Source: a virus
Virus record (IMG/VR): IMGVR_UViG_3300026521_000527
Coordinates: 32,001 to 96,000 of that record
DNA: 64,000 nucleotides
Reading direction: 5' to 3' (one strand)
In this document: positions 1-47,378 of the stretch, piece by piece
How positions within the stretch are numbered: the first letter of the stretch is position 1
Layout: every line of letters starts with the position of its first letter
Translations under genes and position numbers: made by a program
Notes under the pieces: generated by a model
What the model was told of the DNA's origin: nothing
Seen by the model: the letters and a program-made list of their open reading frames with translations, nothing else
Databases searched by the model: none

Positions 1-302
1 CTAGCTTGTTTTTTTAAATAAGCATAACCAGCAGATGTATTCCATTCAATAACAGCTGGTGTAAATCGATGATGCCTATATCCAAATTGATAATACTCTT
101 TAGACATTTCATCAATCCAAGCAGGACCATCATCTCGATGAATTAGATCGAATTTAAATGTTGCTAGAGCATCTTGTTCTTCAGTCTCAATATAAACTGA
201 AGATCTAAAATTATCTGGAGTATGATCCATACCGAACATTTTTGGCATTAATCTTGCTTTTGGGTTGTGTTCTAAACCGAACACTTTATTTTTATTTCCC
301 AT
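1..302 (-). CDS. Hypothetical protein, runs off the left edge; contains an LHRxDGPA-type motif
   Basis: Manual translation from ATG at 302 with SD GGGG: MGNKNKVFGLEHNPKARLMPKMFG...LIHRDDGPAWIDEMSKEYYQFGYRHHRFTPAVIEW...; open to the window edge. The motif resembles the LHREDGPA repeats of large-virus proteins. Confidence 0.65.
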   Translation of the reverse strand, partial: MGNKNKVFGLEHNPKARLMPKMFGMDHTPDNFRSSVYIETEEQDALATFKFDLIHRDDGPAWIDEMSKEYYQFGYRHHRFTPAVIEWNTSAGYAYLKKQA

Positions 303-312
303 TTTTATCCCC
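285..312. repeat. 28-bp direct repeat, copy 1 (SD + first 6 codons, MGNKNK)
   Basis: tttatttttatttcccatttttatcccc at 285-312 is identical to 590-617. Confidence 0.9.
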
Positions 313-341
313 TTTTTTTAAATATAAAAAATAGTTGTTTT

Positions 342-366
342 AGGATCTGCGTAAAACACAGATCCT
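342..366. terminator. Hairpin, possible intrinsic terminator
   Basis: aggatctg-N9-cagatcct between two minus-strand genes; the T-run follows on the plus strand only. Confidence 0.45.
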
Positions 367-370
367 TTTT

Positions 371-607
371 TCATTTTTTAACCGAATTCTTACATCTTTT
401 CGGCAATCCGGTCTTTTTATCGAATATAGGGGCCATTCCTGTATTTAATACAGCTATATACAAAAAATCATGAGAGCAGATTTCTCTACCCTCAACAACA
501 CTAACTTTGTCAGTTTTCATAACAGTATTAATTATTATGAAAATAATGACTGGCATTATTATAATGCCAGTCAATGCTAATATTATCTCTTTATTTTTAT
601 TTCCCAT
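371..607 (-). CDS. Small hypothetical membrane protein
   Basis: 78 aa with N-terminal hydrophobic stretch IILALTGIIIMPVIIFIII; SD upstream. Confidence 0.7.
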   Translation of the reverse strand: MGNKNKEIILALTGIIIMPVIIFIIINTVMKTDKVSVVEGREICSHDFLYIAVLNTGMAPIFDKKTGLPKRCKNSVKK

Positions 608-2002: not shown

Positions 2003-4459
2003 ATGCAATCTACATTTAATCAAACTCTTGATAAATATGAAGATATCGTTCGTATAAATATGAAAGTTACGAACCCAACTCTTCTTAAATCGGGGACGCT
2101 TGGAGTTATTACTAACTATATAGCTAATTTAAAATTCGATACTTATCAGTACTATACTAAAATTTTTAAAGAAATGAATATAGGATTGGCTGAGGATTTT
2201 AAAAGTCTTCTTTTCCATAGCACAATATACGATACAGAAATCGAATTGGCGAAGCCAGCGACTTTCGGAGTTAGTTTTATTATACCTGAGATTAACCTCA
2301 GTGAAATTAAGTACTTAAAATACATTATTCCAAAGAATAAAGAATTTACATCAAGAGAAGGAATCCCTTTTATAATCGAAGATGAAATAATTATTGAAAT
2401 AAGTCAGAATAATATTATAGCGTATACTTGGAGTGAGATTAATGGTAAACAGGAATTGACTGTCATTAATACTCAGAATCCCAACTCCCCAGGAACGACA
2501 GTAAATCTAATAAATTATAATAATGTTAGACAGTATCAAAGAACATTTTATAAATTTATAGTCCCAAAATATGATGTCGGGGAGACTTTTAACTTCAGTG
2601 TTACAATTCAAGATTATAAAATGTTTAAGAAATTAAATGCATGGTATAATCCAGATCCAAAAAATAATCCAATTAAATTATTCGAATTGCAAAATCAAAA
2701 CTCAGAAGACATAATGAGTTTATTTGAACTCAAAGATTTTGATATAAAATATTATAATTATGGATCTTCTAGATATGATCTTGACTTATTTTTAGATATC
2801 CAGCCAACTTCATTAAGATTAACGACTGGTAATGGTATTAATGGAATGCTTTTGCAACCAGATTCTGAAATAATAATTGAGAGTCAATTAACGCTAGGTG
2901 AGCAAGGAAATTTACCAAACATGGAATTTCTAGTTGAAGATATAATTATCCAAGAATTCAATCTAGATAATAAAATTCAATCTTACACTGGAAATATTAA
3001 TGGATTATCTATTGCTGGCGGAACTGGTGGTCAGAATATTCAAGATGTTAAAGATATTCGTAGAAATATATTTGATAAAATATCAACACGAAATTCAATT
3101 ATAACCGAAAATGATTATGAGAAATCATTTGCTTATAATGGAGTTGAGCCTTTTGTCGATGCGAAATTTATAGATGCAAAATCATATATATTTTTATTTA
3201 ATGTATTAAAATCGCAAGATATTATTATTGACACAACCTCAATAAATATTCAAGAGTATATTATAGCAAATGATCCGTTCTATCCAAAATACGATTACAA
3301 TGGAAAAGAATTAATATCTCCCTTTTATTTTAAAAGAGTAAATACTAATGAAACTGAGGGATATATTGTCAATCCAGATGTAATATTAACTTTAACTTCT
3401 CCTGCTGGGACACCGAAAGAAACATCAATTGAATATTTAGTAAGCCTAAGTATTCAATATGACTTCAGTGCCAGAAAAACATATATAACCATTAAAGATG
3501 GTGCTAAATCAGGAACTACTTATAATTTTAAAAGTTCTGTGTTCAACTGCACTCTAGACTTTGGTAATAATTATAAATATGAAGTTAATACTAGATACAC
3601 AGATACGTATTGTATTATTAGAGACATCCTTAGAGATGTTCGTCTAGATGTTTATAATGAAGACGGTGCTTTTATTACAACATATTATGCTTTCGGTGAG
3701 TGGACACAATTAATAAAAAAACAGACATTTTTTAAATATTATAAGCATATTCCAGAACTAGAAGGTGTTGATGTTTATACGTCAGATGATGCATATTCGT
3801 ATTTGGATAATGCATTGGCAGATATATTAAACGATATTAATGAATTGGTGGCGGCCACTAAAGACCAAGGAGATGTTCCGTACTTATTAAGAGTTCCGTT
3901 CATAGACATTGAATTTTTTAATAGAACAGACTGGTTGGAATTTTATAGGTTAATTGATAATTTTTTTATGGTGGATTCATTGTATCCTAGAATTTCGTAC
4001 AATACGCGTGTTGCTCAAGCATTTTATAATACAATTGACATACCTGAGGTTTACCAACCGCTAATTTTTAAACAAACGTCTATGGGGGTAATGGATAAAC
4101 CCAAAATGAATGTTGAATTGGGCATAGTGATCGATGAGCAAAATCTTCTTTTATCAAAATTCAATAGTATTTTTGATTTTGAGATAGAAGTAAAATTAGA
4201 CATTGTAAATTATTTAAAAGACTATGAAGGTTTCAAAGTTGAGTTTTTTGAGACTGAACTCGAGACTTTTTTATACGGAAAATATAATTCGATAATTAGA
4301 AATATAGAATTAAAAAGTCCAAAGATGTTTAAAATTAACTCAGCTGATGAAATTTTTGCATTGATTAATGAAAATTTAGACTTAGATCATATGTTAAATT
4401 TCGTACCGAATTATTTTTCATATGATTATAATTCAATTCATATAGATATTACAACTTAG
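2003..4459 (+). CDS. Baseplate wedge subunit (T4 gp6/baseplate-J-like)
   Basis: 818 aa; LTTGNGING and AGGTGGQNIQDVKDIRRNI...RNSIITENDYEK match the conserved gp6/J segment. Confidence 0.7.
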   Translation: MQSTFNQTLDKYEDIVRINMKVTNPTLLKSGTLGVITNYIANLKFDTYQYYTKIFKEMNIGLAEDFKSLLFHSTIYDTEIELAKPATFGVSFIIPEINLSEIKYLKYIIPKNKEFTSREGIPFIIEDEIIIEISQNNIIAYTWSEINGKQELTVINTQNPNSPGTTVNLINYNNVRQYQRTFYKFIVPKYDVGETFNFSVTIQDYKMFKKLNAWYNPDPKNNPIKLFELQNQNSEDIMSLFELKDFDIKYYNYGSSRYDLDLFLDIQPTSLRLTTGNGINGMLLQPDSEIIIESQLTLGEQGNLPNMEFLVEDIIIQEFNLDNKIQSYTGNINGLSIAGGTGGQNIQDVKDIRRNIFDKISTRNSIITENDYEKSFAYNGVEPFVDAKFIDAKSYIFLFNVLKSQDIIIDTTSINIQEYIIANDPFYPKYDYNGKELISPFYFKRVNTNETEGYIVNPDVILTLTSPAGTPKETSIEYLVSLSIQYDFSARKTYITIKDGAKSGTTYNFKSSVFNCTLDFGNNYKYEVNTRYTDTYCIIRDILRDVRLDVYNEDGAFITTYYAFGEWTQLIKKQTFFKYYKHIPELEGVDVYTSDDAYSYLDNALADILNDINELVAATKDQGDVPYLLRVPFIDIEFFNRTDWLEFYRLIDNFFMVDSLYPRISYNTRVAQAFYNTIDIPEVYQPLIFKQTSMGVMDKPKMNVELGIVIDEQNLLLSKFNSIFDFEIEVKLDIVNYLKDYEGFKVEFFETELETFLYGKYNSIIRNIELKSPKMFKINSADEIFALINENLDLDHMLNFVPNYFSYDYNSIHIDITT

Positions 4460-4477
4460 AATAGGAGATGACCAGAT

Positions 4478-7400
4478 ATGGCAGATTTTGATAATAGTAT
4501 AGAAGATTATGGAAATGATACACAGACAGATTCATCAGGTGATGCATACCTTGACCAATCTGTTAGCTCGATGACTATTGAAGATTTAAAAAATTATATA
4601 GATTATTTAATTACCAGAAGTGGAATATTAACGGCTGATGAAATAGAGGCTAAAGTTCAAGAAATTGCCAGAGCATCTGGTATGATGTCAGTGCAGGAAA
4701 TTCAAAATCTAGTAATGCTTACGCTAAATAATGCTCAAGCTTTGACTAGAGATACTGCTGAAGAAATAATCAATCTTAAAGTTGCTAAAGCAATCCTTGA
4801 TTTAAATGATAATAAAGATTTTATCGCTGATGTAAAATCTCAATTAGAGTTAGAAATAAACAGAGTTCGTGAAGAACTCAATTCAGCTAGAAATGATTTC
4901 CAAGCAACTGAAGATGACTTGGAATTGGTAAAACAAGAGTTCAAATTCAACCAAGAGAATGTAAAAAGAAGTCTAAATCTTTTCGAAAGTCTTTTGAATA
5001 GTTCTCTTGAAAATAAAGAAGTTTATAATTTATTATCAATTGAAAGAAATACAAGAGCTACTCAGATTGATGAAGTTAGAACAGATATTTCTACAATCGA
5101 GTCAAAATTAACTGAAACATTTAATAGTATAGAAAAAAAGTTAAATTCCCAAGGCAATCTTTTTAAAATCCAGGATACTAACCTTAAAAATACTCTTGAT
5201 ATTCTTAAAACAGAATTCGAGGGCAAAATTAAGTTAATTGAGAATGAAGTTCGTGATGCTGGTGAGATGCTAAGTAGTCTAATGCTTAGCACATCTGATT
5301 TAACATCGAAACTTCAAGCAATTAACTCAATCGATATGACTGAAGATGGTAATGTAATAATTGCATTCCAAGATCAAGTTGATGGGATTCAAACAGATAT
5401 TAATAATTTAACTATAGAATTACAAGAAGCAGTAAGTAATCTCACGCAAGCTAGTTCTAAATTTTCGGATTTAGAGTCAAATGTTCAAAATGAACTCATT
5501 GCTAATAAAACTCTTTTGGTTTCTGAGCTTTCGAATATCAGTGGGCGTCTAGATATGGAAACTCAAGATAGAAAATCACATGATAATGCTATTTTAAACG
5601 CTTGGGTAGATTACACAACAGATGTTAATTCTAAAATCCAATTAATGAATTCAGAAATTAATAAACTTAGTACTCAACTAAATGAATTCCCTAGAGTTCT
5701 TGATGAACTTATTCAAGTTGAGCAAGAAGTTAGAATTAAATCTGATGAGACTCTTTTGACTAAAATGAATGTCGAGCTTCAAAAAATTAGAGATAATATT
5801 GATAATACAACCCTAAGAACAGATATTGAATTACTTAGCCAAAGATTATCAAGAGCAATTGAGAAGTATGATAAAGCAATTGTTCAAGAAATCAAGCTTA
5901 TGTTTGATACAATAAATAATGAACTTGTTAATGTAAAGAGTGATATTGAACTCAATAAATCAATTCAAAATGGAAATCTTAGAACTGAATCTACTTTAAG
6001 AGAACAAGGCGATTCAAATCTAAATCAATTGATTCAATTAGAGTCAAGTATTCGTCAAACGAGGGTTCAAGAAATAACTAATCTGGCTAATAAATTAGCT
6101 GAAGATGTTAATAGGCTTCAAATTGCAGTAGGTTCTGGAGATAATACTAATATACAAGATGCTGTTGATTCATTAAATGCCAGATATTTAAATGTTTTTA
6201 ATACAATTAATGAGTCTAAAGATAAATTTACAAAAGATATTACTAAATTAACTCTAGATTTTAAAAATCTGGATGATATCGTAACTACATTCAAAGAAAC
6301 ACTTCTTGATAATATTAAATCAGAAGCTGACGCAAGACTCGCAGGTGACAATGGAATTCAAGTGATTCTTAATAAATTATTGACTGATTTTAATAATTTT
6401 ATTGGTATTCTGGATCCTTCGAAAGTTAGTCTATCTAAAGTTTATGATACTATTGAGTCAGTCAGAACTGAACTCAATAAATTTAAAATAGATTTCGATG
6501 ACAATATCGAGTTAAAAATCAACTTAATCAATACATCTCTTGATGAAATTAAAAATACTCAAAGAGCTTATTCTAAAGATATTCAAACCGAAATACAGGC
6601 TAGAGAGACAGCTGACTTGAACTTAGATTCTAAAATTAGAATTGTAGATAATAAATTACCTGAATTAAGAGCAGAATTGAGTTCAGAATTAAGAATTCTT
6701 GAGTCAAATCTAACTGATTCAGTAAGTAAATTGACAAGCGACTTAGCTATTGAAACACAGGTGCGTGAAGATGGAGATGCTTCAAGAGAAGCTGATTTCA
6801 ATGCTTTTAAAGATAACGTTGATCTTAAACTAAATAATTTTAATACCGCTCTAAGTACTGAGCAAGCCGACAGATTAAATAGCATATCTGATCTTACTAA
6901 TTCAATCAATAGAGAAGTTCAAGAAAGAACAGAAGTTGTTACTAATATTGAAATAGCTATCGCTAATGAAACACAAGCAAGAGCCAAAGGTGATGCCGAT
7001 CTTAAAAAATTAATCCAAGCACAGAACGCTACAATTCAAAGTATTCTATCAAGTGAAAGTGAAATAGATCTTGAAAACCTCCAAGCAGTTTTAGATATTG
7101 TAAAATATTTAAATGAAAATCCAGACGCTAATCCAACAGCCGAACTTCTAGAAGGGTTGCATTCAATAGAAGAAAATTTAACAACTTTAGTTGAAAATGA
7201 AGCTCAGTTAAGAACACAAGCCGATGGTATTTTAGACGGTAAAATTGGATCATTGAATTCAAAAGTTCTTGAAGAAGCTCAAAAGAATATAGAAGAATTC
7301 AGTAGAGTTAGAAATGAACTTAACACATCTGTTCAAGATTTAATTACTAAAATAGATGCTAGCCTTGTATCAGCAACTGATTTAATTAATACTGAAAAAC

Positions 7401-18055: not shown

Positions 18056-19471
18056 TTATTTAAGGGTTTTCTTCATAAGGACTATAAATTTCTCCATAAA
18101 ATTAAGGTATTCATCAAATGACAATTGTAATGAATTATAATTATCATCAAGATAATGATTTATATTTAATTTTAACATCAAGTCTTTCGACATCGCCTCG
18201 AAAATCTCATCAACAATTTCCCTATCCCTAAAATGTTCGTAAAAATATCTCCATAAATGTTTATTTAATAATTCTTTTATGATAACTCTATTCTTTTTAG
18301 CATTAACTCTTTTAAAGAAATTACTATTTACTTTATGATATCTACTTTCCTTAAGAACAGCATTATTTGTAAATTTTAAACTAGTGCTGTAAAAATACAT
18401 ATGATCGACAAATGGCATATTATCTCTATATGAAGCAAATACGTCGAAATAATTTGGTTCGAAAAAATGCTGAGTATAATCATCATCAAGTAATGAAAAA
18501 TCTCTTTTTATTAATTTCTTATTTTTCATTATATGTGAAAATACTAATGAGTTTATAATAAACTTTTTAGGATCTGTTTGAGTTCCATGATCAAATAAGA
18601 GATCGAAATTTTCATGGAAAAGACCTTCAAGTTGTTTAAAATAACCTATCTTCACCTTAGTTAGATTTGTCGCATAAAAACTAAAAAGATTTTTATGAAT
18701 TAATGTTATATAACTACTAAAGATTGCTCTCAGAGTAAATGGATTTTTATTTCTAACAGCGACTAACATTATATATTTAAGAATTTTCTCGACAATAAAA
18801 TCTGGTGTTATCATTAACACATCATAATAAAATTCTCCAATTTTAGTTTTACTATTATATTTCATTAACCACTGTTCAATTAATGATTTGATAGTTAAAG
18901 TAAACTTAGTTAATTCTTCTTTATAAGCAATCAAATCATAAATCTCTCTGATGAAAATTTCAGCTGGATTTTTAGAACCATTAATATTTTTAATACCATT
19001 CTTTTCAAGATACGGCTTGGCAACCTGATCAATAACTTTAAGGAAATAATGATAACTAACTAAAGTCATTCTTTGAACGCCAGTTTCAAACATTGTTAAC
19101 GGAATTGGATCCATGATGTTATCAATAATTGCTTTGAATCTTTCTGCTTCCATCTCCCCCTTTGTGTCCAAAAGAAACTTATGTTCTGTTTTAACATTTT
19201 CATTAATTATTTTAGATACAACTAAACTAAACTCATCAAATAATTCAGCACCAAATTGAGGAATATAATTTTTTTTAGAAGCTTTAAGATTTTTGGAGAC
19301 TAAATTCCAGTCAATAATTTCTTCAAATTTATTATATAACCACGATTGAACTCGAGCATCTATGTTATATTTTTCGAGGTATGCTTCACATACCTCTTCA
19401 ATATCTTTATAATCATATTTTAACTTTACTTCTCGTGATGTGCTTAAATCTTTGCGGACTAACTTCATCAA
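18056..19471 (-). CDS. Hypothetical helical protein
   Basis: 471-aa ORF; no motif recognised. Confidence 0.75.
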   Translation of the reverse strand: MMKLVRKDLSTSREVKLKYDYKDIEEVCEAYLEKYNIDARVQSWLYNKFEEIIDWNLVSKNLKASKKNYIPQFGAELFDEFSLVVSKIINENVKTEHKFLLDTKGEMEAERFKAIIDNIMDPIPLTMFETGVQRMTLVSYHYFLKVIDQVAKPYLEKNGIKNINGSKNPAEIFIREIYDLIAYKEELTKFTLTIKSLIEQWLMKYNSKTKIGEFYYDVLMITPDFIVEKILKYIMLVAVRNKNPFTLRAIFSSYITLIHKNLFSFYATNLTKVKIGYFKQLEGLFHENFDLLFDHGTQTDPKKFIINSLVFSHIMKNKKLIKRDFSLLDDDYTQHFFEPNYFDVFASYRDNMPFVDHMYFYSTSLKFTNNAVLKESRYHKVNSNFFKRVNAKKNRVIIKELLNKHLWRYFYEHFRDREIVDEIFEAMSKDLMLKLNINHYLDDNYNSLQLSFDEYLNFMEKFIVLMKKTLK

Positions 19472-19998
19472 TTCTCCTCTGAGTCAAAATGATCCCAAGG
19501 AAATACGACCCATAAATTTTTATTGACCGATTTTCCAAAAATAATATCGGCTTGTGGTTTTTTATTATACGCAGCACACATAATTATATTTTGATTATCA
19601 GTTACTTGATCTTCCAGAAGAGTTCTAATAGACTCAAGTGTATCACCAGTATCATAAATATCATCAACTACAATAATATTCTTAAATTGATTAAAATCAA
19701 GATTGGGTAATTTTATAGACAATTCTCCTTTTTTAGTACCCGAATAGCTTTGAGCAGATACTAAGTCAATATTTCTATTATTAAAAATATAACTTAAAAT
19801 CTGTGCGCTATATAAACCACCTCTAGCGACTGCCAAAATCAAGGTTTCATCCGGGTCACAAATACCATCGTAAGATTCTAAAATTGTATTAGCTATCTTT
19901 TCGGTACTGTCTTCAATTCCTTTATTTGAGATATAATATTTAGTCATTATCAGCCTCCGTTCTTTCCGGAAATTTATATTTAAATACAGGAAATCCAT
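19468..19998 (-). CDS. Type I purine phosphoribosyltransferase (Gpt/XPRT-like; true start probably 19947)
   Basis: AVARGGL, PRPP-binding loop IIVVDDIYDTGDTL, C-terminal WVVFPWD. Confidence 0.85.
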   Translation of the reverse strand: MDFLYLNINFRKERRLIMTKYYISNKGIEDSTEKIANTILESYDGICDPDETLILAVARGGLYSAQILSYIFNNRNIDLVSAQSYSGTKKGELSIKLPNLDFNQFKNIIVVDDIYDTGDTLESIRTLLEDQVTDNQNIIMCAAYNKKPQADIIFGKSVNKNLWVVFPWDHFDSEEN

Positions 19999-20377
19999 TT
20001 TCTTTTAAGATATCTTGAATGCTTTCACTGACCTCATACATATCACCACCTGGAATATAATCCGGATCTACTGATTGAATAATTCCTTTTTTCGCAGTAG
20101 TTAATCGAATAATATATTTTTTCTCAGTATCAAGGATTAGGTAATTTTTAACTTCAGTATTATTTTTATAGAATTCTTCTGCTTCTTCTGATGTATTAAC
20201 CTCATCAGGTTTTCTAAGAACCTCAATGGATATTAGATTACTCTCTCCGAACATTTTTTGAATCTCTTCTTTTTGCTGTTCGATTTCTAAGTCGCTAATT
20301 AAATCATCTGTTGTTTTTATGCTACCTGATTTATCCACTGGGTTGTTTAGTACTTTTAACTCTGCTGTTTTTTCCAT
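19940..20377 (-). CDS. Hypothetical protein
   Basis: 145-aa acidic ORF with SD. Confidence 0.7.
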   Translation of the reverse strand: MEKTAELKVLNNPVDKSGSIKTTDDLISDLEIEQQKEEIQKMFGESNLISIEVLRKPDEVNTSEEAEEFYKNNTEVKNYLILDTEKKYIIRLTTAKKGIIQSVDPDYIPGGDMYEVSESIQDILKENGFPVFKYKFPERTEADND

Positions 20378-20421: not shown

Positions 20422-21222
20422 TTAATTCTTTATATCGTGTTCCCAAACCAACTTAAAGTTTTCTTTATCAATATGTATTTTATTTATCAAATCACTGAGT
20501 TCAATTAAATAATCTTCTATTTTATTTGATTGAGGTCTTGAATTAGATATTAAATAACATTCAAAATACGGATCATCTGAATTTGGAATAATTAAAAATA
20601 TTTTCCAGAGCGCTGATGGAATATTTACCCGAACTTTATTTTTAATAAACTTATCACTTCTCAAGACTCCGGTAACTACATAAATTTTTTTATTAATTAA
20701 GGCGAGTTTTCTTTCGTATTTTTCAAGCTTTGACCACAATCCTCTATTTAAATTCTCTTCTTGTGGGACACATGCGTTTATTACATAAACCTCATCTGCT
20801 GCCTCAATATTTATATCAACACTACTTGATGCCGGCAAATGTCCAGCATCAAAACCATCATAAGAATATTCTTTGTATGATGGTCTATACTCCCTCGGAA
20901 TTCTTTTATCAGTTCTTAGATACTGTCTTTTATATTTCTCAACCAAAATGTCCGCTGAATCTAATGAATAAATCACAAAATCAGGCGTGTTGTAATAATA
21001 ATTATAACACTCCTGATATTTTATATTTATTAAAACTTGATTACAATCGTCTTTTATATAAAATCCAGTTGGTTTATGGGGAGCCAAATAAGACTCAACT
21101 TGATCGGGAACTTTTAAAGTATCTGCCCACCCAAATACAGAATTCAAAAATATTAGCAAAAAAAATAATTTAATCTTGGCTCGAGCCAAGATTAAATTAT
21201 TAAACTTCATGAATTTAAACAT
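20422..21222 (-). CDS. DNA/RNA non-specific endonuclease (NucA/Endonuclease_NS family) with signal-peptide-like N-terminus
   Basis: FDAGHLPAS (DRGH-like), PQEENLNRGLWSKLE, IYVVTG, IPSALWK; N-terminal KIKLFFLLIFLNSVFGWAD. Confidence 0.85.
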   Translation of the reverse strand: MFKFMKFNNLILARAKIKLFFLLIFLNSVFGWADTLKVPDQVESYLAPHKPTGFYIKDDCNQVLINIKYQECYNYYYNTPDFVIYSLDSADILVEKYKRQYLRTDKRIPREYRPSYKEYSYDGFDAGHLPASSSVDINIEAADEVYVINACVPQEENLNRGLWSKLEKYERKLALINKKIYVVTGVLRSDKFIKNKVRVNIPSALWKIFLIIPNSDDPYFECYLISNSRPQSNKIEDYLIELSDLINKIHIDKENFKLVWEHDIKN

Positions 21223-21238
21223 TATTTATCCAACCTTT

Positions 21239-23155
21239 TTATTTTTTAATAATTCCAATTCCAAGACAATGGGGACATTCCTGAATACCAATATCCTCCT
21301 GTAAACCATAAACTTTTGATTCAAACAATCTAACTGAATTTTGTGCTGTGTCCTTTAATTGATATAATATTTTATAATTCAGAATTGTATTTATATTATT
21401 GAGTATTTTATCTTTCGAATTAAATATCTCAAAAGAGTTCCGAAGAACTCTTTTCTCTTTTAATAAATTTCGGAATAATTTTATTAAAAGAATATTTCTC
21501 TGAATTGAGTTCTTTTGAACTCTTTTATTGTAAATTTTTATATTTATATTAGTATTGATATAAAAGTTAAGAATCCAATAATTATAAATTAATTTCTGTC
21601 TAAGTTGATTCTTTTTAATGTTGTGGTCTATTTTATCGATGCTGTTTTGATATACTCTTATCGAAGTCGATAATATCAAATGCCATAAAAGATAATTAAT
21701 TTTATTTAATATCTTTTCAGTTCTTTGGGACTCAAATAATTTATTTCTTTCAATATCTAGAATAGAATTACTATCTTGAAATTCTCTTATTAGATAATAA
21801 CTCTTTAATATTTTTAGCTTTTTAATTTCTAGTTGAGTTTGAGTTATTTTTGACTCAATTAAAATAATTTCTTCTTGAAATTGCTTATGTTTTTGATTCA
21901 TATCAATTAATGAATCTTTTATCTGGGCGACAGCCAGTGCAATATTTTCAGTATTGAATAAAAAAGAAAATATTTTTTCAGAATCAGTTGTTTTGGAACC
22001 TATTAAAAATAAACCATCGTATTGATTAGTATATGCAATTCTTTCTGTCTGTTCTTTTAACGCTCCTTTAAAATTTTTATATAGGTTTTTTACATCAATA
22101 TATTTGAAACCTATTTCTTCAACTGCTTCTTTTAATTTATCTGCGGCAAGATTTTTACCATAATAAGCTTCACCGTTGATAATAAATTGAACTTTTTTTC
22201 CTTTATAAAGTAATCCAATTTCTTTATGTTCTTTACCTTGCTCCTCTTCTTCTAATGTTGGTATATACCCAAAAGTAATTTCAGTTTCTAGATTTCGACC
22301 ACCTGGATTTAATCGAGGATAGTTATTAACATTAAAATTATTAAAAAGAATAGATTCAATTGCACGAAGCGAAGCACTTTTACCACTATTATTAGGCCCT
22401 CTGATAACAGTAAACCCACTATATACAAAATGTTGTTGTTTTATACTTTGAAAATTTTTGATACTGTTATAAAAGAATCCACTTTCTGGGAGTTCACCTT
22501 CTTGATTAACTATTTCTAAAGTAGGTATTCCATCTTTATCTGGAGTTGCTTGAACTTCATAAACAAGATGTGCATCAAAATCCAACTCTTCAGTTTGTGA
22601 GACAACAACTAAAGTGAATCCATAGGTATCACAAAATTTTCTAAGAAAACTACTCAATCTAATTCTATATTGTGGACTAACTTGACTGAGACTTTCATCA
22701 AAAATATAGAATTTATTTTGGCTGTATAAATAGCCTATTAGTATTTTGAAAAATAAACTTGCGATTGAAAGCACTCCACCACCATTACTCGCAGTTAGCT
22801 CATCGTTTTTTGCAATCTCAATCCCATTCTGATAAAAAATTATATCGTACTTTTGGGTTCCAGAAGCACTCTTTCCTCTTTGAATTCTGGGTTTTATATC
22901 TAATTTATAGTCAGCTTCGAAAACATCAACTAGAGCTGAATTTACAACTTTAAGAATAAAATCTTTCCTTTTTTCAAGCTTATGATTTTTTAATAATTCA
23001 AGAAGTACTTTTGCTTCAGTATGATGTTTAATTCTAACTTCGAGTGCTGCAGCACTCGAAGTTAGATTATTTTTTTCATGTTCAAGATGAATTAAATTAT
23101 CCTCTTGAACTCTGAGTTTAATATGAGTCTCATTGTAATTTGAAGTCAAATCCAT
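21239..23155 (-). CDS. sbcC: SbcC/Rad50-like ABC ATPase, circularly permuted
   Basis: Order seen: coiled coil, signature SNGGG (~aa123), Walker B FYIFDE (~aa149), VVVSQ, then IKNFQS and Walker A GPNNSGKS (~aa253), Q-loop, coiled coil, and C-terminal CPHC hook; adjacent to sbcD. Confidence 0.85.
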   Translation of the reverse strand: MDLTSNYNETHIKLRVQEDNLIHLEHEKNNLTSSAAALEVRIKHHTEAKVLLELLKNHKLEKRKDFILKVVNSALVDVFEADYKLDIKPRIQRGKSASGTQKYDIIFYQNGIEIAKNDELTASNGGGVLSIASLFFKILIGYLYSQNKFYIFDESLSQVSPQYRIRLSSFLRKFCDTYGFTLVVVSQTEELDFDAHLVYEVQATPDKDGIPTLEIVNQEGELPESGFFYNSIKNFQSIKQQHFVYSGFTVIRGPNNSGKSASLRAIESILFNNFNVNNYPRLNPGGRNLETEITFGYIPTLEEEEQGKEHKEIGLLYKGKKVQFIINGEAYYGKNLAADKLKEAVEEIGFKYIDVKNLYKNFKGALKEQTERIAYTNQYDGLFLIGSKTTDSEKIFSFLFNTENIALAVAQIKDSLIDMNQKHKQFQEEIILIESKITQTQLEIKKLKILKSYYLIREFQDSNSILDIERNKLFESQRTEKILNKINYLLWHLILSTSIRVYQNSIDKIDHNIKKNQLRQKLIYNYWILNFYINTNINIKIYNKRVQKNSIQRNILLIKLFRNLLKEKRVLRNSFEIFNSKDKILNNINTILNYKILYQLKDTAQNSVRLFESKVYGLQEDIGIQECPHCLGIGIIKK

Positions 23156-23469
23156 TACTTATTTTCCTTTAAAATATTCAAAGATAGATAAGTTTGGCAG
23201 GTAATTGCTTCTTTTAATGTACTAAAATCAAAAGTAATTAACTCCATTTTATCAGTTACATGAAATCTCAATTTCTTAATACTTATATCAGTCAGTAAAC
23301 TAACTGACCATAAATCTGGATGTTCTTTTCGTAATCCAATCATCTCAATATAATTTGACTGTAAATTTATACTAACACCAGAAGGAAATGTTACAAAAAT
23401 ATCTTCCTTTTCATTACCCTTACCAAGACCTCGACTGAAAATATAATCCCCAACATGCAATTCTTTCAT
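23155..23469 (-). CDS. Hypothetical protein between sbcD and sbcC
   Basis: 104 aa, overlaps both neighbours. Confidence 0.7.
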   Translation of the reverse strand: MKELHVGDYIFSRGLGKGNEKEDIFVTFPSGVSINLQSNYIEMIGLRKEHPDLWSVSLLTDISIKKLRFHVTDKMELITFDFSTLKEAITCQTYLSLNILKENK

Positions 23470-24521
23470 TCTAAATACTCCTTAGCTATCTGTAAAGCTT
23501 CATTTGAAATATTATGCTGATGCATAAATTTTTCTAATGTACTTAAATCATCTACTTCTACAAGATCCTCATCTAATGTAACTTCTTCAAAAAATTTAAA
23601 TTCTGTTTTTCCAATTTCTTGTAATAAGTTTATAACATCAATATTAAAAGCTTCACTGAATGGTTTAACTTTTAAAGGAATTGTTTTTGATAGTACTTGA
23701 AAATCATCAGAAGAATCTTCTGGTGCCTCCGATATACTAAAAACACAAAATTCTGGAATATGTTCATCCATTTTTGCAGCATAGTCTCGTGCAACTCTTG
23801 TTAAATTCCAAGGGTTGCAAAAAATAGTTCCTGATGTTTCAAATATAGATCCAAGTTGTGACTGAATATGATAATGTCCACAATTAAATAAATCTACATT
23901 GTATTGTGATAACTCCCCATAAGTGAAATCAGTTAATCTTTCAATATCCGAAGTTATATTTGAGTGTAATGTAACTACTTTAAAAGTTTTTTTATCAGGG
24001 ATAAAATCCATCTCAATTGATTTTAGCTGATTAATTATTTTTGATTTATCCTCACTGTAATCAATACCATAGAAAATTATATTTTTTCCCAAGGCAATAT
24101 CAAATACTTTTTTATTTCCTGCACCGATATATGTAATTAACCCACTTTCCACACAATCTTCAAAAAATGTTTCCTTGATAGTCTCATGACCGTCGAAATA
24201 ATCATGATTTCCTAAAATGGAAAATACTTCTATGCCTGCGTCATTAAACTTACGAAGACGTTTTTTATTCTGGAGCCCTTGGCTTAAACTCCAGTCTTTC
24301 TTTCGCGATTTCTCAAATATATCACCCGTAAATATAATTTTATTAATATTATTTTCCAGACAATAATTTATAATCTGATCAATTTTATCATCGATATCGA
24401 TTTCCCATTTTGATTTACGGATTCTATTTTTGAAGCCGAACATAAAATGAGGATCTTTAATTACAATGAAATCAAATGTGTCTGATGAGATCATTTGATC
24501 GGATGAATTTTCATAAATCAT
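23466..24521 (-). CDS. sbcD: SbcD/Mre11-like metallophosphoesterase nuclease
   Basis: DPH, GDIFE, GNHD, LHS and GHYH metallophosphoesterase motifs in order. Confidence 0.9.
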   Translation of the reverse strand: MIYENSSDQMISSDTFDFIVIKDPHFMFGFKNRIRKSKWEIDIDDKIDQIINYCLENNINKIIFTGDIFEKSRKKDWSLSQGLQNKKRLRKFNDAGIEVFSILGNHDYFDGHETIKETFFEDCVESGLITYIGAGNKKVFDIALGKNIIFYGIDYSEDKSKIINQLKSIEMDFIPDKKTFKVVTLHSNITSDIERLTDFTYGELSQYNVDLFNCGHYHIQSQLGSIFETSGTIFCNPWNLTRVARDYAAKMDEHIPEFCVFSISEAPEDSSDDFQVLSKTIPLKVKPFSEAFNIDVINLLQEIGKTEFKFFEEVTLDEDLVEVDDLSTLEKFMHQHNISNEALQIAKEYLE

Positions 24522-31450: not shown

Positions 31451-33343
31451 TTATATTAAATTGATGTCGAAATTATCTATTGCTGAAGAAATTTTTCGTT
31501 TTCTAAAAGCAATGTCATCACTCAACCAACCGATTAATTCAGCTATCTCTTCTTCAGTGTTTTCAGACTCTTTTAAATGCAATGGTTCTAATAATTCATC
31601 AAGAGTGTATCTTTTAAATAACTCTTTCCATTCCAACTTCTCTAGAGTACCAAGTCCTTTTTTATAGTCAAATATCAACCCAGCTTTTTTATTTTTCGCT
31701 TGGAATTCTTCCAGCTCTTGCATAGAGAATATAAAACTATGTATTTTTCCAATGCCAGAATAAACAGTAATTAATGGGGTGATGAATCTAAATACTTTAC
31801 CCTCGTATAAATATTTAGGAAAATATTTATAAATAAACCCGAGCACCAATCCTGCGATATGGTCTCCGTCTACATCCATATCAGTAGCTATAGCTATTGA
31901 ATCGTAAACTAGATTTTCATTATCATTTTTCGATAAATCCAATCCAAGAATTGTCGCCAGTTGTTTTATTTCAGCATTTGATAGAACTTTTTTACTATCT
32001 TTTATAACATTGAGAATTACACCCTTCAATGGGAAGAAACCATTTTCCGAACGTCCTATTCTAGATATAATTGAAGTAATTGCAGTATCTCCTTCAGCTA
32101 TGAATAATCTCTTTGGGTCATCAGTCGCTGGCCAGAATTTTTCAGGGAGATCTTGTTGCTTCGTCGCTTTCTTTAACGCTTTGCTTTCTTCAACAAGCAT
32201 CTTTGCTTTATATAAATCAGTAATTGGATCAATGATATTTTTATTTTTATAGACTCTGTTGATAAATAACAGGAACTTCTTTTTAATTTCTGGAGAATTG
32301 AAATCAAGATATCCTGTTATCTCAGCCTGGGTGTTCGTGAGGAATTCTTTCGTCTGTCCATCAAATTTAGCCCCAGGAAAATTCCTAAAAAAGATTACAC
32401 AAGACAATTTATTTTTTATGTCACCTGGCTTAATAGACTTAAATTTTCTAACTAGTTTTTCACGGAGAGCACCAGTTAATTGACGCACAAGAAATTCTAC
32501 ATGATTTCCACCTTTTTCTAACCATAAGCTATTAACATATGAATGAAATCTAAAATCGTTTGAGTCATTTGGAACACAAGCCATAAAGAAATCATCAGTG
32601 CTAAAAATTTCAAAAGTTTCATTAAATAATCCTATAAATTTTTTAGGATCGTATTTTACAACTCTATTATTAAATTTAAATCTAATCTCGGGATAGAGAA
32701 CACTGAGATTTATTATTCTTTGGTGTATTAGTGAAGTATGTAAATCGTCTATTTCTTTAAGCCCAAACCGTTCTAAATCCGGTTCGAAAAGAACTGCAGT
32801 TCCTTGTGTCTCAGTCTTGAGTTCAGTAATTGATGTTGAACTTAAGTTATCTTTGAACTCAACACGAAGTCTTTTTTCACCATCATCTGTTACACCAATA
32901 AATTTTTTACTGAATACAGTAGTTGCAAAAGATCCAATACCATTCATCCCAGCGGAGACTCTTTTATCATCATCTTCGAAATTTGAACCAGCTCTTGCTT
33001 GTCCCCAAGCTATTTCTGGAAGCCAATGACCACCTTCTTTTTTAACAGGGATCCCGTAACCATTATCTTGGACTTTAACTCTTTTTGGGGTTATATTGAT
33101 ATTAATTTCATTTGCAAATTTGAAGTTACTTTTTATGGCAACATCTATACTATTATCAATAATCTCATTAATAATCTTTACAAGGCCGGGAATGTATAAA
33201 TATTCTGTCCATTGAAAACAGGAACCTTTTAATAAAAAGGATTCCTGTTTAACTGTCTGCAAACTACCAATTATATTATGTCCTCTTATTAATAGCCAAT
33301 CTCTATCCGAGAGAACTTTTATATCATTTGAATTTTTACTCAT
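31451..33343 (-). CDS. Type IIA DNA topoisomerase, ATPase+TOPRIM subunit (T4 gp39+60/GyrB-like)
   Basis: EIIDNSID, DNGYGIP, GMNGIG, FDGQTKE, IAEGDTA, FPLKG, ATDMDVDGDHI. Confidence 0.95.
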   Translation of the reverse strand: MSKNSNDIKVLSDRDWLLIRGHNIIGSLQTVKQESFLLKGSCFQWTEYLYIPGLVKIINEIIDNSIDVAIKSNFKFANEININITPKRVKVQDNGYGIPVKKEGGHWLPEIAWGQARAGSNFEDDDKRVSAGMNGIGSFATTVFSKKFIGVTDDGEKRLRVEFKDNLSSTSITELKTETQGTAVLFEPDLERFGLKEIDDLHTSLIHQRIINLSVLYPEIRFKFNNRVVKYDPKKFIGLFNETFEIFSTDDFFMACVPNDSNDFRFHSYVNSLWLEKGGNHVEFLVRQLTGALREKLVRKFKSIKPGDIKNKLSCVIFFRNFPGAKFDGQTKEFLTNTQAEITGYLDFNSPEIKKKFLLFINRVYKNKNIIDPITDLYKAKMLVEESKALKKATKQQDLPEKFWPATDDPKRLFIAEGDTAITSIISRIGRSENGFFPLKGVILNVIKDSKKVLSNAEIKQLATILGLDLSKNDNENLVYDSIAIATDMDVDGDHIAGLVLGFIYKYFPKYLYEGKVFRFITPLITVYSGIGKIHSFIFSMQELEEFQAKNKKAGLIFDYKKGLGTLEKLEWKELFKRYTLDELLEPLHLKESENTEEEIAELIGWLSDDIAFRKRKISSAIDNFDINLI

Positions 33344-34886: not shown

Positions 34887-35135
34887 CTATTGAATTGATT
34901 CGTGATCTAATGTTTTTAATTCAGATTCAAGGCCAATTAAAATTTTATTTAATTCATCGACATCTAGAGTTCCGAATAACTCTTGAATCTGGTCTCTGTA
35001 TGGATTTATCTGCTCTTCGAGAATTATTAATTGCTTTTCAATTTGCTTTTTTTCCTCGAGCAATTTATTTAATTCATCTTTATAATGCTGAGCTTTTTGT
35101 CTAAGCTCGGAATCTGATATACTCTGTTGATTCAT
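34887..35135 (-). CDS. Small coiled-coil protein
   Basis: 82 aa with heptad pattern. Confidence 0.7.
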   Translation of the reverse strand: MNQQSISDSELRQKAQHYKDELNKLLEEKKQIEKQLIILEEQINPYRDQIQELFGTLDVDELNKILIGLESELKTLDHESIQ

Positions 35136-36396
35136 TATATTTTCCTTCCTTTATATCTTTATCAATTTTTGAAATAATTTCAGTACTAACTACTTGGAAT
35201 AATTTTATTCCGTAAATTTTTCCAGCTGTTGTTATTGAATTACCTATAATTGGTGAAGCAAATTGCCAAGTAATTAAACCATAAATACCATAAAGTGAGT
35301 TCAAAGTAACTTTAATTCCCTGCTGCATTGAATTAAATTGAGCTTCTCTTAGTGCAATAAATATTGGTATTTTTTCATGCGCATTTATTTTTTTATTTAT
35401 TTTATGAACTTCAAATTCAATTGTAGTTAGTGAAAAAAGACGTCCCTCTCTGGATTCAGTATCCTCAATCTCATTCAGGATTTGATTAGCCTGCCTTTCA
35501 CTTAAATATAAACCATTCTCTGGGTTTAAAAAGAACTCTTTAGTTTCTTCTGATAGTTTATTATACGCTGATAAAATAGCACCGAGCATTAGACTTCTGT
35601 TTTTAATTATTTTCCTATCATCTAATCCTATTTTAATTAATTCAACATCAAAAGCTAAATTTTCATCATGAAGATCATAAAGCACGCCATAAGGGTTAAC
35701 TATTTTGCGAGAAAATATTTCCCTCATTTCTTTAAGATTTAATTTTTTAAAACTAACTTTAGTTGAATTAAAATTCAGCATAATATAAATATATTTATTG
35801 CGATATTTTTGATCAAAATCATGATTGAAAAAAACATAATCTATTGTCGTTTGATTATATCCTCTATTTTGCGGGCTAACCCAAGTTACCAATTCAAGAA
35901 TTGGATAAAGATAACTTCTAAGTAAAAAATATGAAGTATCATCTTTAGGTTCAAAAATATCTTCTAGAGTTCCTTGGAACTCTAGAAGTTTTCTCAGAAG
36001 TGCTACATAATAATTTGAAGCAAATTCCAACATATCTGCTTTATTCTGTACTGTTTTTCTAGTAAAAAAATCTTTTAATGAACCTATTATAGCATTTGAA
36101 AATCCGGAACATGCTTGGTCAATAATTTCCGGATTATCCTTTTTCTTAGTAAGAACTGTGGCTATTAAATTTAACGTGCGATCAATAATCGCTGGTTCAT
36201 ATATTCTTGCGAATAAAGTATCATACCCAATATTTTGATGCATTAGACTAATTGGATATAGTGCATTAGCATCATTACTACTAACAACCATATCCGGTTC
36301 CAGTCCATAAATTCCAGGCACTGGTTGCTGAACATAAGCACCCTGCACTTTTAGATGCATCGCGAAATTTTTAATTTCTTCAATGGTAAATGCCAT
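35101..36396 (-). CDS. Family B DNA polymerase, middle fragment (motifs A and B)
   Basis: QGAYVQQPVPGIY, VSSNDANALYPIS (motif A), QQGIKVTLNSLYGIYG (motif B), GNSITTAGK; no exonuclease motifs or YGDTDS. Confidence 0.9.
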   Translation of the reverse strand: MAFTIEEIKNFAMHLKVQGAYVQQPVPGIYGLEPDMVVSSNDANALYPISLMHQNIGYDTLFARIYEPAIIDRTLNLIATVLTKKKDNPEIIDQACSGFSNAIIGSLKDFFTRKTVQNKADMLEFASNYYVALLRKLLEFQGTLEDIFEPKDDTSYFLLRSYLYPILELVTWVSPQNRGYNQTTIDYVFFNHDFDQKYRNKYIYIMLNFNSTKVSFKKLNLKEMREIFSRKIVNPYGVLYDLHDENLAFDVELIKIGLDDRKIIKNRSLMLGAILSAYNKLSEETKEFFLNPENGLYLSERQANQILNEIEDTESREGRLFSLTTIEFEVHKINKKINAHEKIPIFIALREAQFNSMQQGIKVTLNSLYGIYGLITWQFASPIIGNSITTAGKIYGIKLFQVVSTEIISKIDKDIKEGKYNESTEYIRFRA

Positions 36397-45830: not shown

Positions 45831-47378
45831 TTATTTTACTAATAAACCTTCTTCAAGAGATATCTGAATACCTTGAACACCTTTTAATGGAATACCACCT
45901 TGTGTCATAATCCAAAAACTAAATACATTTTTAAAGATTTCAGCATTATACACCTGTTCGATATCACTATAGTTATCACTGAATGATAAATATGTAAATT
46001 TTAATTTAGGATGTTTTTCTTTAATATCGAGAATTGCATCAAAAACTTCTTTATGACTTGTACCTCCACAAGCAATCCTTTTTTGAATAAATTCAGAGAT
46101 ACTTAATTTATCATTCTTTTGGAATCTTTTAATTTCAGCAATTTTATGATCATGAATAATTATATCAACGAACACTGTTTTTTCAACAAGTTCATTAATT
46201 ACGAAATTTATTTTTTTAAGATCAGAATCAGACATTGAGCCACTTTGATCTATCGATATTATCGCAGCAAGATTATCCTCATAATAAATTCTACCAGGCA
46301 TTGGTGAAATATGTCTAAATTTAGATTTTAATTTCCCCCAGGTTTGATCACTCTTATTCGTATGGTGTCTTACTAAAGCCTGCAAGCTTCCTTTTAATAA
46401 ATGAAACCAGTCAACTGGAACTTCGTAATCAACACCAAGATCTCTAAGGGTTCCAGATGAACTGGAACCAGGTTCTCTTGTTTTATCTAAAAGATCTTTA
46501 TATGCCCTCTCAAGCATCTCTTTAGCCTCGTTATCAATGTTCTCACCGTTTGATCCATTTAAATCATCTTCATTTTCACCAAAATTCGGTTTTCCTTCAA
46601 GTTCAAGAAGGGTTGAAGTATTCCCCATAACTGTAATTTTCGTCATCGTACCTAAACCGTCTATTTTGGTACACTCGATTTCAGCATCTTTTAAAATACT
46701 TTCAAGAATTTCGACTTGTGATAATTTATTTGGAGATAAATTTTTATCGTAGAGTCCATTGAAGTTTTCATTATATAATGAAAACATATGACCTTGTCGC
46801 GCTTGTTCAATTAAGTAACCATTAATATAATAATCAAAAGCGTAATTAAGAATTTGATGCATGGCTTTTTCCGGAATATCAGGACGCACTCTTTTTATGA
46901 CTTTTTTATATTTAATATTTAAATAAAAATCATAATGTCTGTTCATAATATGTAGAGTTTCATGTAAATATATAAAAGCAACTTGCGCAGTAACTTTTTG
47001 ACTATATAGCGCAATTTTAAAAAAATCATCCCAGGATTCATCTTCTTTTTTAGATAATGTTATGTTTACAACTAACTCATTTGATTTATTTTTATCAGTT
47101 TCTGCTTTGATAAATCCACCAATCCTAAAATCATCATAATCAAAATTTTTATTTTGAGAAATATGTTTTGGGTTTTTTTCAAATGCTTCCTGCATCTGAG
47201 CAAGTTCTGCGTTTGAAGTCTCGTGAAATTCAAATTTCACTGGCATCAACATCAATAACTCAAGCAAATCTGGATTGCTTGAGTATGCTGATTTCATAAT
47301 AGGGACTGATTTTACCATCAGTCTACTAGTCATTGCGCTATATTTTTTAATTAATTTATATTGGTCTTCCGATATCAT
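45831..47378 (-). CDS. DUF2201-like metallopeptidase-VWA protein
   Basis: YLHETLHIMNRH (HExxH) and IISIDQSGSMS (MIDAS DxSxS), GGTSH; follows a MoxR-like ATPase. Confidence 0.85.
   Translation of the reverse strand: MISEDQYKLIKKYSAMTSRLMVKSVPIMKSAYSSNPDLLELLMLMPVKFEFHETSNAELAQMQEAFEKNPKHISQNKNFDYDDFRIGGFIKAETDKNKSNELVVNITLSKKEDESWDDFFKIALYSQKVTAQVAFIYLHETLHIMNRHYDFYLNIKYKKVIKRVRPDIPEKAMHQILNYAFDYYINGYLIEQARQGHMFSLYNENFNGLYDKNLSPNKLSQVEILESILKDAEIECTKIDGLGTMTKITVMGNTSTLLELEGKPNFGENEDDLNGSNGENIDNEAKEMLERAYKDLLDKTREPGSSSSGTLRDLGVDYEVPVDWFHLLKGSLQALVRHHTNKSDQTWGKLKSKFRHISPMPGRIYYEDNLAAIISIDQSGSMSDSDLKKINFVINELVEKTVFVDIIIHDHKIAEIKRFQKNDKLSISEFIQKRIACGGTSHKEVFDAILDIKEKHPKLKFTYLSFSDNYSDIEQVYNAEIFKNVFSFWIMTQGGIPLKGVQGIQISLEEGLLVK

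Follow-up and report, generated by a model that had tools for sequence, protein, structure and literature searches.

Can a Rad50/SbcC-type ATPase be wired the other way around, with the second half of its head at the beginning of the chain and the zinc hook at its very end? This question is raised by P0001, a protein of 638 amino acids (aa) encoded by an uncultured giant phage in the window analyzed here (64,000 nucleotides, positions 32,001 to 96,000 of the IMG/VR virus record IMGVR_UViG_3300026521_000527; coordinates are those of the window unless stated otherwise). The heads of Rad50, SbcC, and SMC proteins are split in two by a long out-and-back arm, and it is still debated how the length and rigidity of this arm and the zinc hook signal to the head. 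The canonical chain runs from the Walker A lobe via an ascending coil, the hook, and a descending coil to the Walker B lobe. This order is absent from P0001, in which a short helix is followed by the signature, Walker B, the H-loop position, a linker, Walker A, the Q-loop, a long helix, and a terminal CPHC motif (Table 1). Our analyses support reading this order as a genuine circular permutation of the Rad50/SbcC ATPase, and we consider it likely that P0001 is the permuted single-chain Rad50/SbcC-type ATPase of this phage that works with an Mre11/SbcD-type nuclease on DNA ends. The record comprises 136,864 bp at an estimated completeness of 49% (CheckV), and the public sequencing runs that contain the gene are hydrothermal-vent metagenomes, with no RNA run listed among them.

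The two halves of the ATPase head

A first-pass annotation made from the letters of the window without database searches had read the motifs of this gene as signature SNGGG, Walker B FYIFDE, VVVSQ with His-to-Gln replacement at the H-loop position, Walker A GPNNSGKS, the Q-loop, and terminal CPHC. All of these positions and coordinates are correct in the translation of the minus strand, and the beta-1 motif IKNFQS opens lobe I ahead of Walker A. A word-indexed search yielded 92 full-length homologues of 552 to 748 aa in JGI, ENA, NCBI, and Logan assemblies, several of them on contigs of 220 to 315 kb. K259, D153/E154, GGG, and Q378/D380 are invariant in this set, and the motifs GPNNSGKS, Q378-x-D380, SNGGG, and FYIFDE are likewise found in 92/92 homologues, i.e., the family has the complete motif set of an ABC (ATP-binding cassette) ATPase with variation at the H-loop position, a degree of conservation well beyond what chance would produce. 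Where canonical Rad50/SbcC has His, P0001 and 70 of these 92 close relatives have Gln, and the remaining 22 have His. The more distant fused members and those split C-halves (see below) that were examined retain His at this position. The cysteines C627 and C630 are conserved in 90 of the 92 homologues, and so is G634 (90/92).

Each half of the head can be aligned to Rad50 separately, which the first-pass annotation had put forward as a check of its reading. In the family profile, residues 231-283 of P0001 align with residues 6-59 of P. furiosus Rad50 and residues 151-213 with the stretch from Walker B to the C-terminus in the fused crystal construct of the same protein. Profile and fold comparison together assign residues 57-219 to the C-terminal half of Rad50 and residues 225-402 to the N-terminal half of Rad50/SMC proteins, and both lobes match the Rad50/SMC fold. 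An AlphaFold2 model built on the 92-sequence alignment has a mean predicted local distance difference test score (pLDDT) of 78, with values of 80-95 in the head, and shows the N-terminal helix antiparallel to residues 403-472. Since this pairing keeps the two lobes together in Rad50, the model is read as that of a single head, in line with the earlier expectation that both halves form one ABC head. The coil neck matches MukB (9gm6_A; model range 6..457, root-mean-square deviation of 1.9 over 110 residues) and also two-helix stalks. Among family models, Pfam AAA_23 (PF13476) reaches 32.7 bits on the N-half part in a six-frame search (cut-off 27) and Pfam SMC_N scores 20.5-21.3 bits on P0001 (cut-off 40), the NCBIfam SbcC/Rad50 models give no match to P0001, and phrog_15167, a family of stand-alone 211-aa "ATPase" proteins, matches residues 12-193.

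The presumed partner nuclease of 351 aa is encoded two genes upstream of the ATPase. It is recognized by Pfam Metallophos (5.5e-10), an SbcD-like PHROG, and the NCBIfam Mre11 models (1.9e-10), and its best matches in the PDB are Rad32/Mre11, with Mre11, Rad32, or SbcD accounting for all of the best matches. Between the two genes lies an ORF (open reading frame) of 104 aa, P0093, and the stop and start codons of the three genes overlap at both boundaries. The same trio is syntenic in the giant-phage contigs L004 and L015, where the nuclease is 49%, the ATPase 51-60%, and the small ORF 28-38% identical.

The permuted order is a property of a whole family. Distant relatives were added by an exhaustive HMMER search of cluster representatives, and the resulting total of 233 proteins was classified with separate profiles for lobe I and lobe II. 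A single chain with lobe II before lobe I is found in 135 of them (with a CxxC within the last 30 residues in 123 cases), 78 consist of lobe II only (<=235 aa), 20 consist of lobe I only (17 of these end in CxxC), and none of these 233 nearest relatives has the canonical Rad50 order, so that the search for the same domain order suggested by the first-pass annotation gave 135 permuted examples and 0 canonical ones. The linker between the lobes has a median length of 9 residues (range 3-45; 119 complete members). Among 50,697 phage records searched by tblastn with P0001, P0155, and P0188, we found split-type pieces only and no fused permuted gene. Two peptide patterns were used to scan 185,579 species genomes; they revealed no relative, which with a search this limited is no proof of absence. 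Family-model searches, including a six-frame search, identified no second SbcC-like gene elsewhere in the 136.9-kb record. One assembly, GCA_029935855.1, contains two different permuted members, P0020 and P0051, on contigs of 290 kb (L004) and 223 kb (L005), reflecting either two giant phages that were binned together or one very large genome with two copies.

In the mechanism that we propose, the N-terminal helix of ca. 73 residues would correspond to the last part of the descending coil of Rad50 and be followed by lobe II with signature, Walker B, D-loop, and H-loop position, from where a linker of ca. 9 residues would lead into lobe I with Walker A and Q-loop and then into a helix of ca. 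220 residues that ends in a CxxC knuckle. As modeled, the N-terminal helix and the first ca. 70 residues of the long helix make up the usual antiparallel base coil, which brings both lobes next to each other in a single ABC head and would keep the site where the C-terminal helices of Mre11 bind in solved complexes. Because the catalytic residues are all invariant, two heads would be expected to sandwich two ATP, and the Gln at the H-loop position may slow hydrolysis. The distal ca. 150 residues of the long helix probably cannot pair within the chain in the manner of Rad50. By analogy to gp46/gp47 of phage T4, the ATPase and the Mre11/SbcD-type nuclease would process DNA ends for recombination-dependent replication and repair. 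With head, head-proximal coil, and nuclease partner all in place, ATP-driven head engagement and end processing like for SbcCD and T4 gp46/47 would be expected.

Table 1. Positions in the window of the permuted ATPase, its motifs, and the genes discussed in the text
Feature	Residues	Position	Strand	Basis or remark
Whole ATPase ORF P0001, 638 aa		23155..21239	minus	translation, homologues, profiles, AlphaFold2 model
N-terminal helix	7-79	22919..23137	minus	AlphaFold2 model, pLDDT 80-95
Lobe II (Rad50 C-terminal half)	83-219	22499..22909	minus	motifs, profile, fold comparison
Signature SNGGG	123-127	22775-22789	minus	translation
Walker B FYIFDE	149-154	22694-22711	minus	translation
H-loop position VVVSQT	183-188	22592-22609	minus	translation; Gln187 at 22595-22597 replaces usual His
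Linker, former C-terminus to former N-terminus	220-226	22478..22498	minus	AlphaFold2 model, family linker lengths
Lobe I (Rad50 N-terminal half)	227-400	21956..22477	minus	motifs, profile, fold comparison
Walker A GPNNSGKS	253-260	22376-22399	minus	translation
Q-loop TNQYD (Q378-x-D380)	376-380	22016-22030	minus	translation
Long arm, one unbroken helix in the model	403-622	21290..21949	minus	AlphaFold2; distal pLDDT 55-75
Terminal CPHC, short beta-knuckle, presumed zinc-hook half-site	627-630	21266..21277	minus	conservation
104-aa ORF P0093, between nuclease and ATPase genes		23155..23469	minus	conserved synteny
Mre11/SbcD-type nuclease, 351 aa, presumed partner, two genes upstream		23466..24521	minus	Metallophos
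Endonuclease_NS gene (non-specific DNA/RNA nuclease), immediately downstream of the ATPase gene		20422-21222	minus
145-aa protein		19940-20377	minus	in 7/11 related loci
471-aa protein		18056-19471	minus	itself, or a longer form containing it, in 8/11 related loci
82-aa helix-loop-helix coiled-coil ORF		34887-35135	minus	between DNA polymerase B fragment gene and 507-aa unknown
431-aa ORF		35101-36396	minus	match limited to a short stretch of DNA polymerase family B
515-aa ORF		45831-47378	minus	matches HNH endonuclease family

Split relatives and the origin of the fused chain

Beyond the fused clade, the family is most closely related to split systems, which are composed of an N-half that ends at a CxxC and a C-half of ca. 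200 aa with a short coil. The N-half of Bacillus phage vB_BboS-125 is gp32 (471 aa), with Walker A, a long coil, and a terminal CPLC; its C-half gp35 (211 aa) consists of a short coil followed by signature, Walker B, and H-loop, and the unannotated gp34 (78 aa; L003 5972-6208) directly before gp35 is a helix-loop-helix coiled coil. An AP2-domain gene is located between the two SbcC-like halves of this phage. Bacillus phage 0305phi8-36 encodes an N-half fused to the nuclease (gp8), a C-half (gp5), and beside the latter an unannotated 92-aa coil (gp7; L002 6301-6579); of this fusion protein, Yoshida et al. 2011 (PMC3175470) noted only that one P-loop NTPase segment is missing. A tight four-gene operon with overlapping or abutting genes in L023 (positions 2548-5636 of IMGVR_UViG_3300027759_006101, 358 kb) encodes an N-half of 375 aa ending in CDTC, an Mre11/SbcD-like nuclease of 333 aa, an 84-aa coil, and a C-half of 241 aa. 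Its ascending coil of ca. 200 residues is about as long as the 84-aa protein and the ca. 85-residue N-terminal coil of the C-half taken together, suggesting a three-piece arm.

Two other candidates for such halves were rejected, because the 175-aa ORF after the N-half in L008 is not a C-half and gp23 of Tunturi_5, an "exonuclease recombination-associated protein," is not an N-half; weak AAA_23 matches in Tunturi_5 lie far from its C-half gp14. The split-form relatives P0138 and P0136 are located on contigs of <1 kb.

Both halves of the split systems are related in sequence to P0001, which likewise has a Walker A half ending at CxxC and a short coil ahead of the signature lobe, and these systems, too, have an Mre11/SbcD-type nuclease, encoded in the operon or fused to the N-half. 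They differ in being separate polypeptides with usually the N-half first, compared to one chain with the C-half first in P0001, and have been annotated only as "exonuclease" and "ATPase." In an unrooted tree of lobe II (96 non-redundant sequences), P0001 belongs to a clade of 29 fused proteins and one short protein that has strong support in the Shimodaira-Hasegawa-like approximate likelihood ratio test (SH-aLRT 99) and nests among split C-halves, with two other fused proteins elsewhere. Because these split relatives come closest, with N-halves that stop at CxxC and C-halves whose coil is short, fusion is likelier than the re-opening of an intact Rad50, and on the simplest reading the permutation most likely arose by fusing the C-half gene to the N-half gene of a split phage system. 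Of the first-pass view that P0001 is a permutation opened at the hook, we therefore retain the permuted order and the end of the chain at the CxxC and replace the opening by a probable gene fusion.

The distal arm and the terminal CxxC

The chain of canonical Rad50/SbcC turns back at the CxxC, whereas that of P0001 stops there, with the motif placed at the end of a single helix rather than at a coil apex and followed by 8 residues, including G-x-G, to the C-terminus. The asymmetry of the coils that the first-pass annotation had pointed out is equally evident in the AlphaFold2 model, where a descending coil of ca. 73 residues (helix 7-79) stands against an ascending one of ca. 220 residues (helix 403-622). 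Unlike in canonical Rad50/SbcC, most of the arm is not an intramolecular antiparallel coil, and residues ca. 476-622 are unpaired in the modeled monomer. The family supports this view, with C-terminal arms of 185-323 residues and N-terminal segments of 48-120 residues whose lengths are uncorrelated (r = 0.10, n = 119); since the arm varies without a matching change at the N-terminus, most of it cannot pair with the N-terminal helix. The distal arm of P0001 (residues 476-622, i.e., 147 residues) contains no Pro, one Gly, and 43% large hydrophobic and 24% charged residues. Heptad analysis of the distal arm gives an odd period of 3.35 residues, into which we read no meaning. In the clade of 605-aa proteins, ca. 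28% of the distal arm columns are conserved hydrophobic.

The arm model that we put first, although it is less likely than not, is a pairing of the distal helices between two protomers, with one zinc shared by the two terminal CxxC motifs. If true, a ring would be closed with only half as many arm residues as usual. A dimer prediction with two copies of residues 470-638 and zinc scored 0.02, was run without controls, and counts neither way.

Less likely, but the best-placed of the other arm models, is that the distal arm folds back or forms a small helical bundle within the chain, so that P0001 would be a short-armed Rad50; it is to the same degree doubtful that the CxxC, as this model has it, lies part-way along the arm or near its own N-terminus and not at the far tip. 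The large share of hydrophobic residues next to few charged ones goes beyond the requirements of a minimal two-stranded coil, indels in the arm are large and occur in clusters, and the 605-aa clade has a conserved Pro ca. 45 residues ahead of the CxxC, all of which would fit such a fold. However, the long helix is unbroken and without a turn in the AlphaFold2 model, as its content of Pro and Gly would also suggest, the share of conserved hydrophobic columns corresponds to the requirement of one partner strand, and an AT-rich genome inflates the content of Ile, Leu, Tyr, and Phe.

Still further behind our preferred pairing of two protomers, and rather improbable in our view, is a separate small coiled-coil protein that supplies the descending strand and thereby generates a three-piece antiparallel arm with the CxxC as a true apex hook. 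This idea draws on the split operons, where a helix-loop-helix coil gene of ca. 80 aa precedes the C-half (L023, gp34 of vB_BboS-125, and gp7 of 0305phi8-36) and where the coil lengths of L023 add up as described above. In the window, the corresponding place is taken by the 104-aa P0093, which the first-pass annotation had proposed to include in a structure prediction of the complex. Its model is a small alpha/beta domain (pLDDT 75) with only weak PH-like fold matches and not a coiled coil, and P0093 is therefore an unlikely supplier of the missing arm strand. No coiled-coil gene is found in the conserved neighborhood of the fused clade, and a helix-loop-helix protein of 80 aa would be too short for 147 residues. 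When the record was searched with a profile built from these three small coil proteins, no significant match emerged, though this absence proves nothing given that the record is only ca. 49% complete. The 82-aa coiled-coil ORF listed in Table 1 is encoded on the same strand as the ATPase and marginally matches the 84-aa coil of L023 (E 0.01 among ca. 300 ORFs); we regard it as a lead for a third arm subunit and nothing more.

Other readings, known systems, and significance

Several observations weigh against P0001 being a Rad50/SbcC-type ATPase with a zinc hook that arose as outlined above. The similarity to Rad50 is weak (profile E ca. 1e-4) and barely above that to SMC, so that the assignment leans on the nuclease neighbor, the CxxC, and AAA_23. 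The geometry of a single head is an AlphaFold2 prediction, with sequential aligners displaying only one half at a time, and the whole case is built from sequence comparison and predicted structure. In L005 and L006, which are more distant members, the ATPase gene has no nuclease gene next to it and is accompanied by those of the 145-aa and 471-aa proteins of Table 1. Zinc binding by the terminal CxxC is predicted from sequence, and some split N-halves have extra His/Cys after the CxxC that could complete a zinc site within the chain instead of a dimerizing hook. Finally, the approximately unbiased test does not reject that all fused forms go back to one origin (p-AU 0.26), and the lobe II tree, being unrooted, does not fix the direction of fusion versus fission.

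These observations leave some small room for another SMC-like ABC ATPase, e.g., in anti-defense or DNA compaction, with a generic zinc-knuckle CxxC and without functional equivalence to Rad50/SbcC. SMC heads score nearly equal to Rad50, and the constant neighbors of those distant members without an adjoining nuclease have no known family. We nevertheless judge this reading to be very unlikely, since in the clade of the window the ATPase gene is translationally coupled to that of an Mre11/SbcD-type nuclease, the split relatives share operons with this nuclease, AAA_23 as an SbcC-type N-terminal model exceeds its cut-off, and the record holds no alternative SbcC candidate, though SbcCD has been reported as practically universal in jumbo phages (PMC7824862).

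The chance that the permuted order is an artifact, i.e., a mis-assembly or a sequencing error that merged two neighboring genes, is negligible: Logan contigs of the source run do end inside the gene (ca. 22191-22220 and 23037-23062), but they overlap free of differences at break points away from the junction of the two halves (22466-22513), and the 135 homologues from independent assemblies share the identical unbroken order and a conserved short linker. Independent assemblies from JGI, ENA, NCBI, and Logan contain the uninterrupted permuted ORF. The whole gene is covered without differences by contigs of the probable source run, a single one of which, free of errors, contains the junction. 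A 252-nucleotide contig from a run of another study spans positions 22414-22665, including the junction, with zero differences. Mis-joining, which the first-pass annotation had named as the outcome that would overturn its reading, is thus excluded as the cause of the permuted order.

Like canonical Rad50/SbcC (P. furiosus Rad50, E. coli SbcCD, and T4 gp46/gp47), P0001 combines a two-lobe ABC head, a predicted antiparallel base coil, and a CxxC at the end of the arm with an Mre11-type nuclease gene beside its own and a setting among phage replication and recombination genes. It differs by the reversed order of the lobes, with the former termini joined by ca. 9 residues. SMC, MukB, and RecN have in common with P0001 the head fold, the division of the head by a coiled-coil arm, and a similar strength of the structural match, but a hinge or a dimer interface between coils takes the place of the CxxC at the end of their arms, and they work with kleisins or other partners rather than an Mre11-type nuclease. 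To our knowledge, no SMC, MukB, or RecN protein is known in permuted order. We found no description of a permuted or split Rad50/SbcC in the full-text literature, a search that left the main classification of ABC ATPases (Krishnan et al. 2020) outside its scope, and the impression from the first-pass annotation that no example had been described held to this extent.

Among the genes around this operon (Table 1), the 471-aa and 145-aa proteins are the most constant neighbors of the permuted ATPase, even where no nuclease adjoins it. Neither of them matches any family, and the 145-aa protein is not a coiled coil. The Endonuclease_NS gene is missing at its position in L004 and L015 and hence looks like an insertion in the lineage of the window. 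The 431-aa and 515-aa ORFs are consistent with homing elements that break up genes in this phage.

Members of this family and their split relatives are currently labeled as "ATPase," "exonuclease," "chromosome segregation protein," or "EcfA2," and surveys seeking a full-length SbcC will therefore score these phages as being without one. Three changes set the chain of P0001 apart: its termini are joined, it stops at the hook, and it has lost two thirds of the strand that would lead back to the head. The protein thus lends itself to testing whether such a machine needs an antiparallel arm that is intact, a hook at the apex, or no more than a head-proximal coil plus some means of holding two arms together. 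For structural biology, the head on a single chain with its short natural linker might moreover serve as a handy minimal construct. It is conceivable, though we would rather bet against it, that a Rad50-type machine can work without any intramolecular antiparallel arm, with single distal helices pairing between chains and C-terminal CxxC pairs clamping one zinc at the tip. If true, the ring would be closed by an architecture that no SMC-like protein is known to have, and the phages would hold a natural series that leads from the four-gene split via split systems with reordered genes to the permuted form on one chain.

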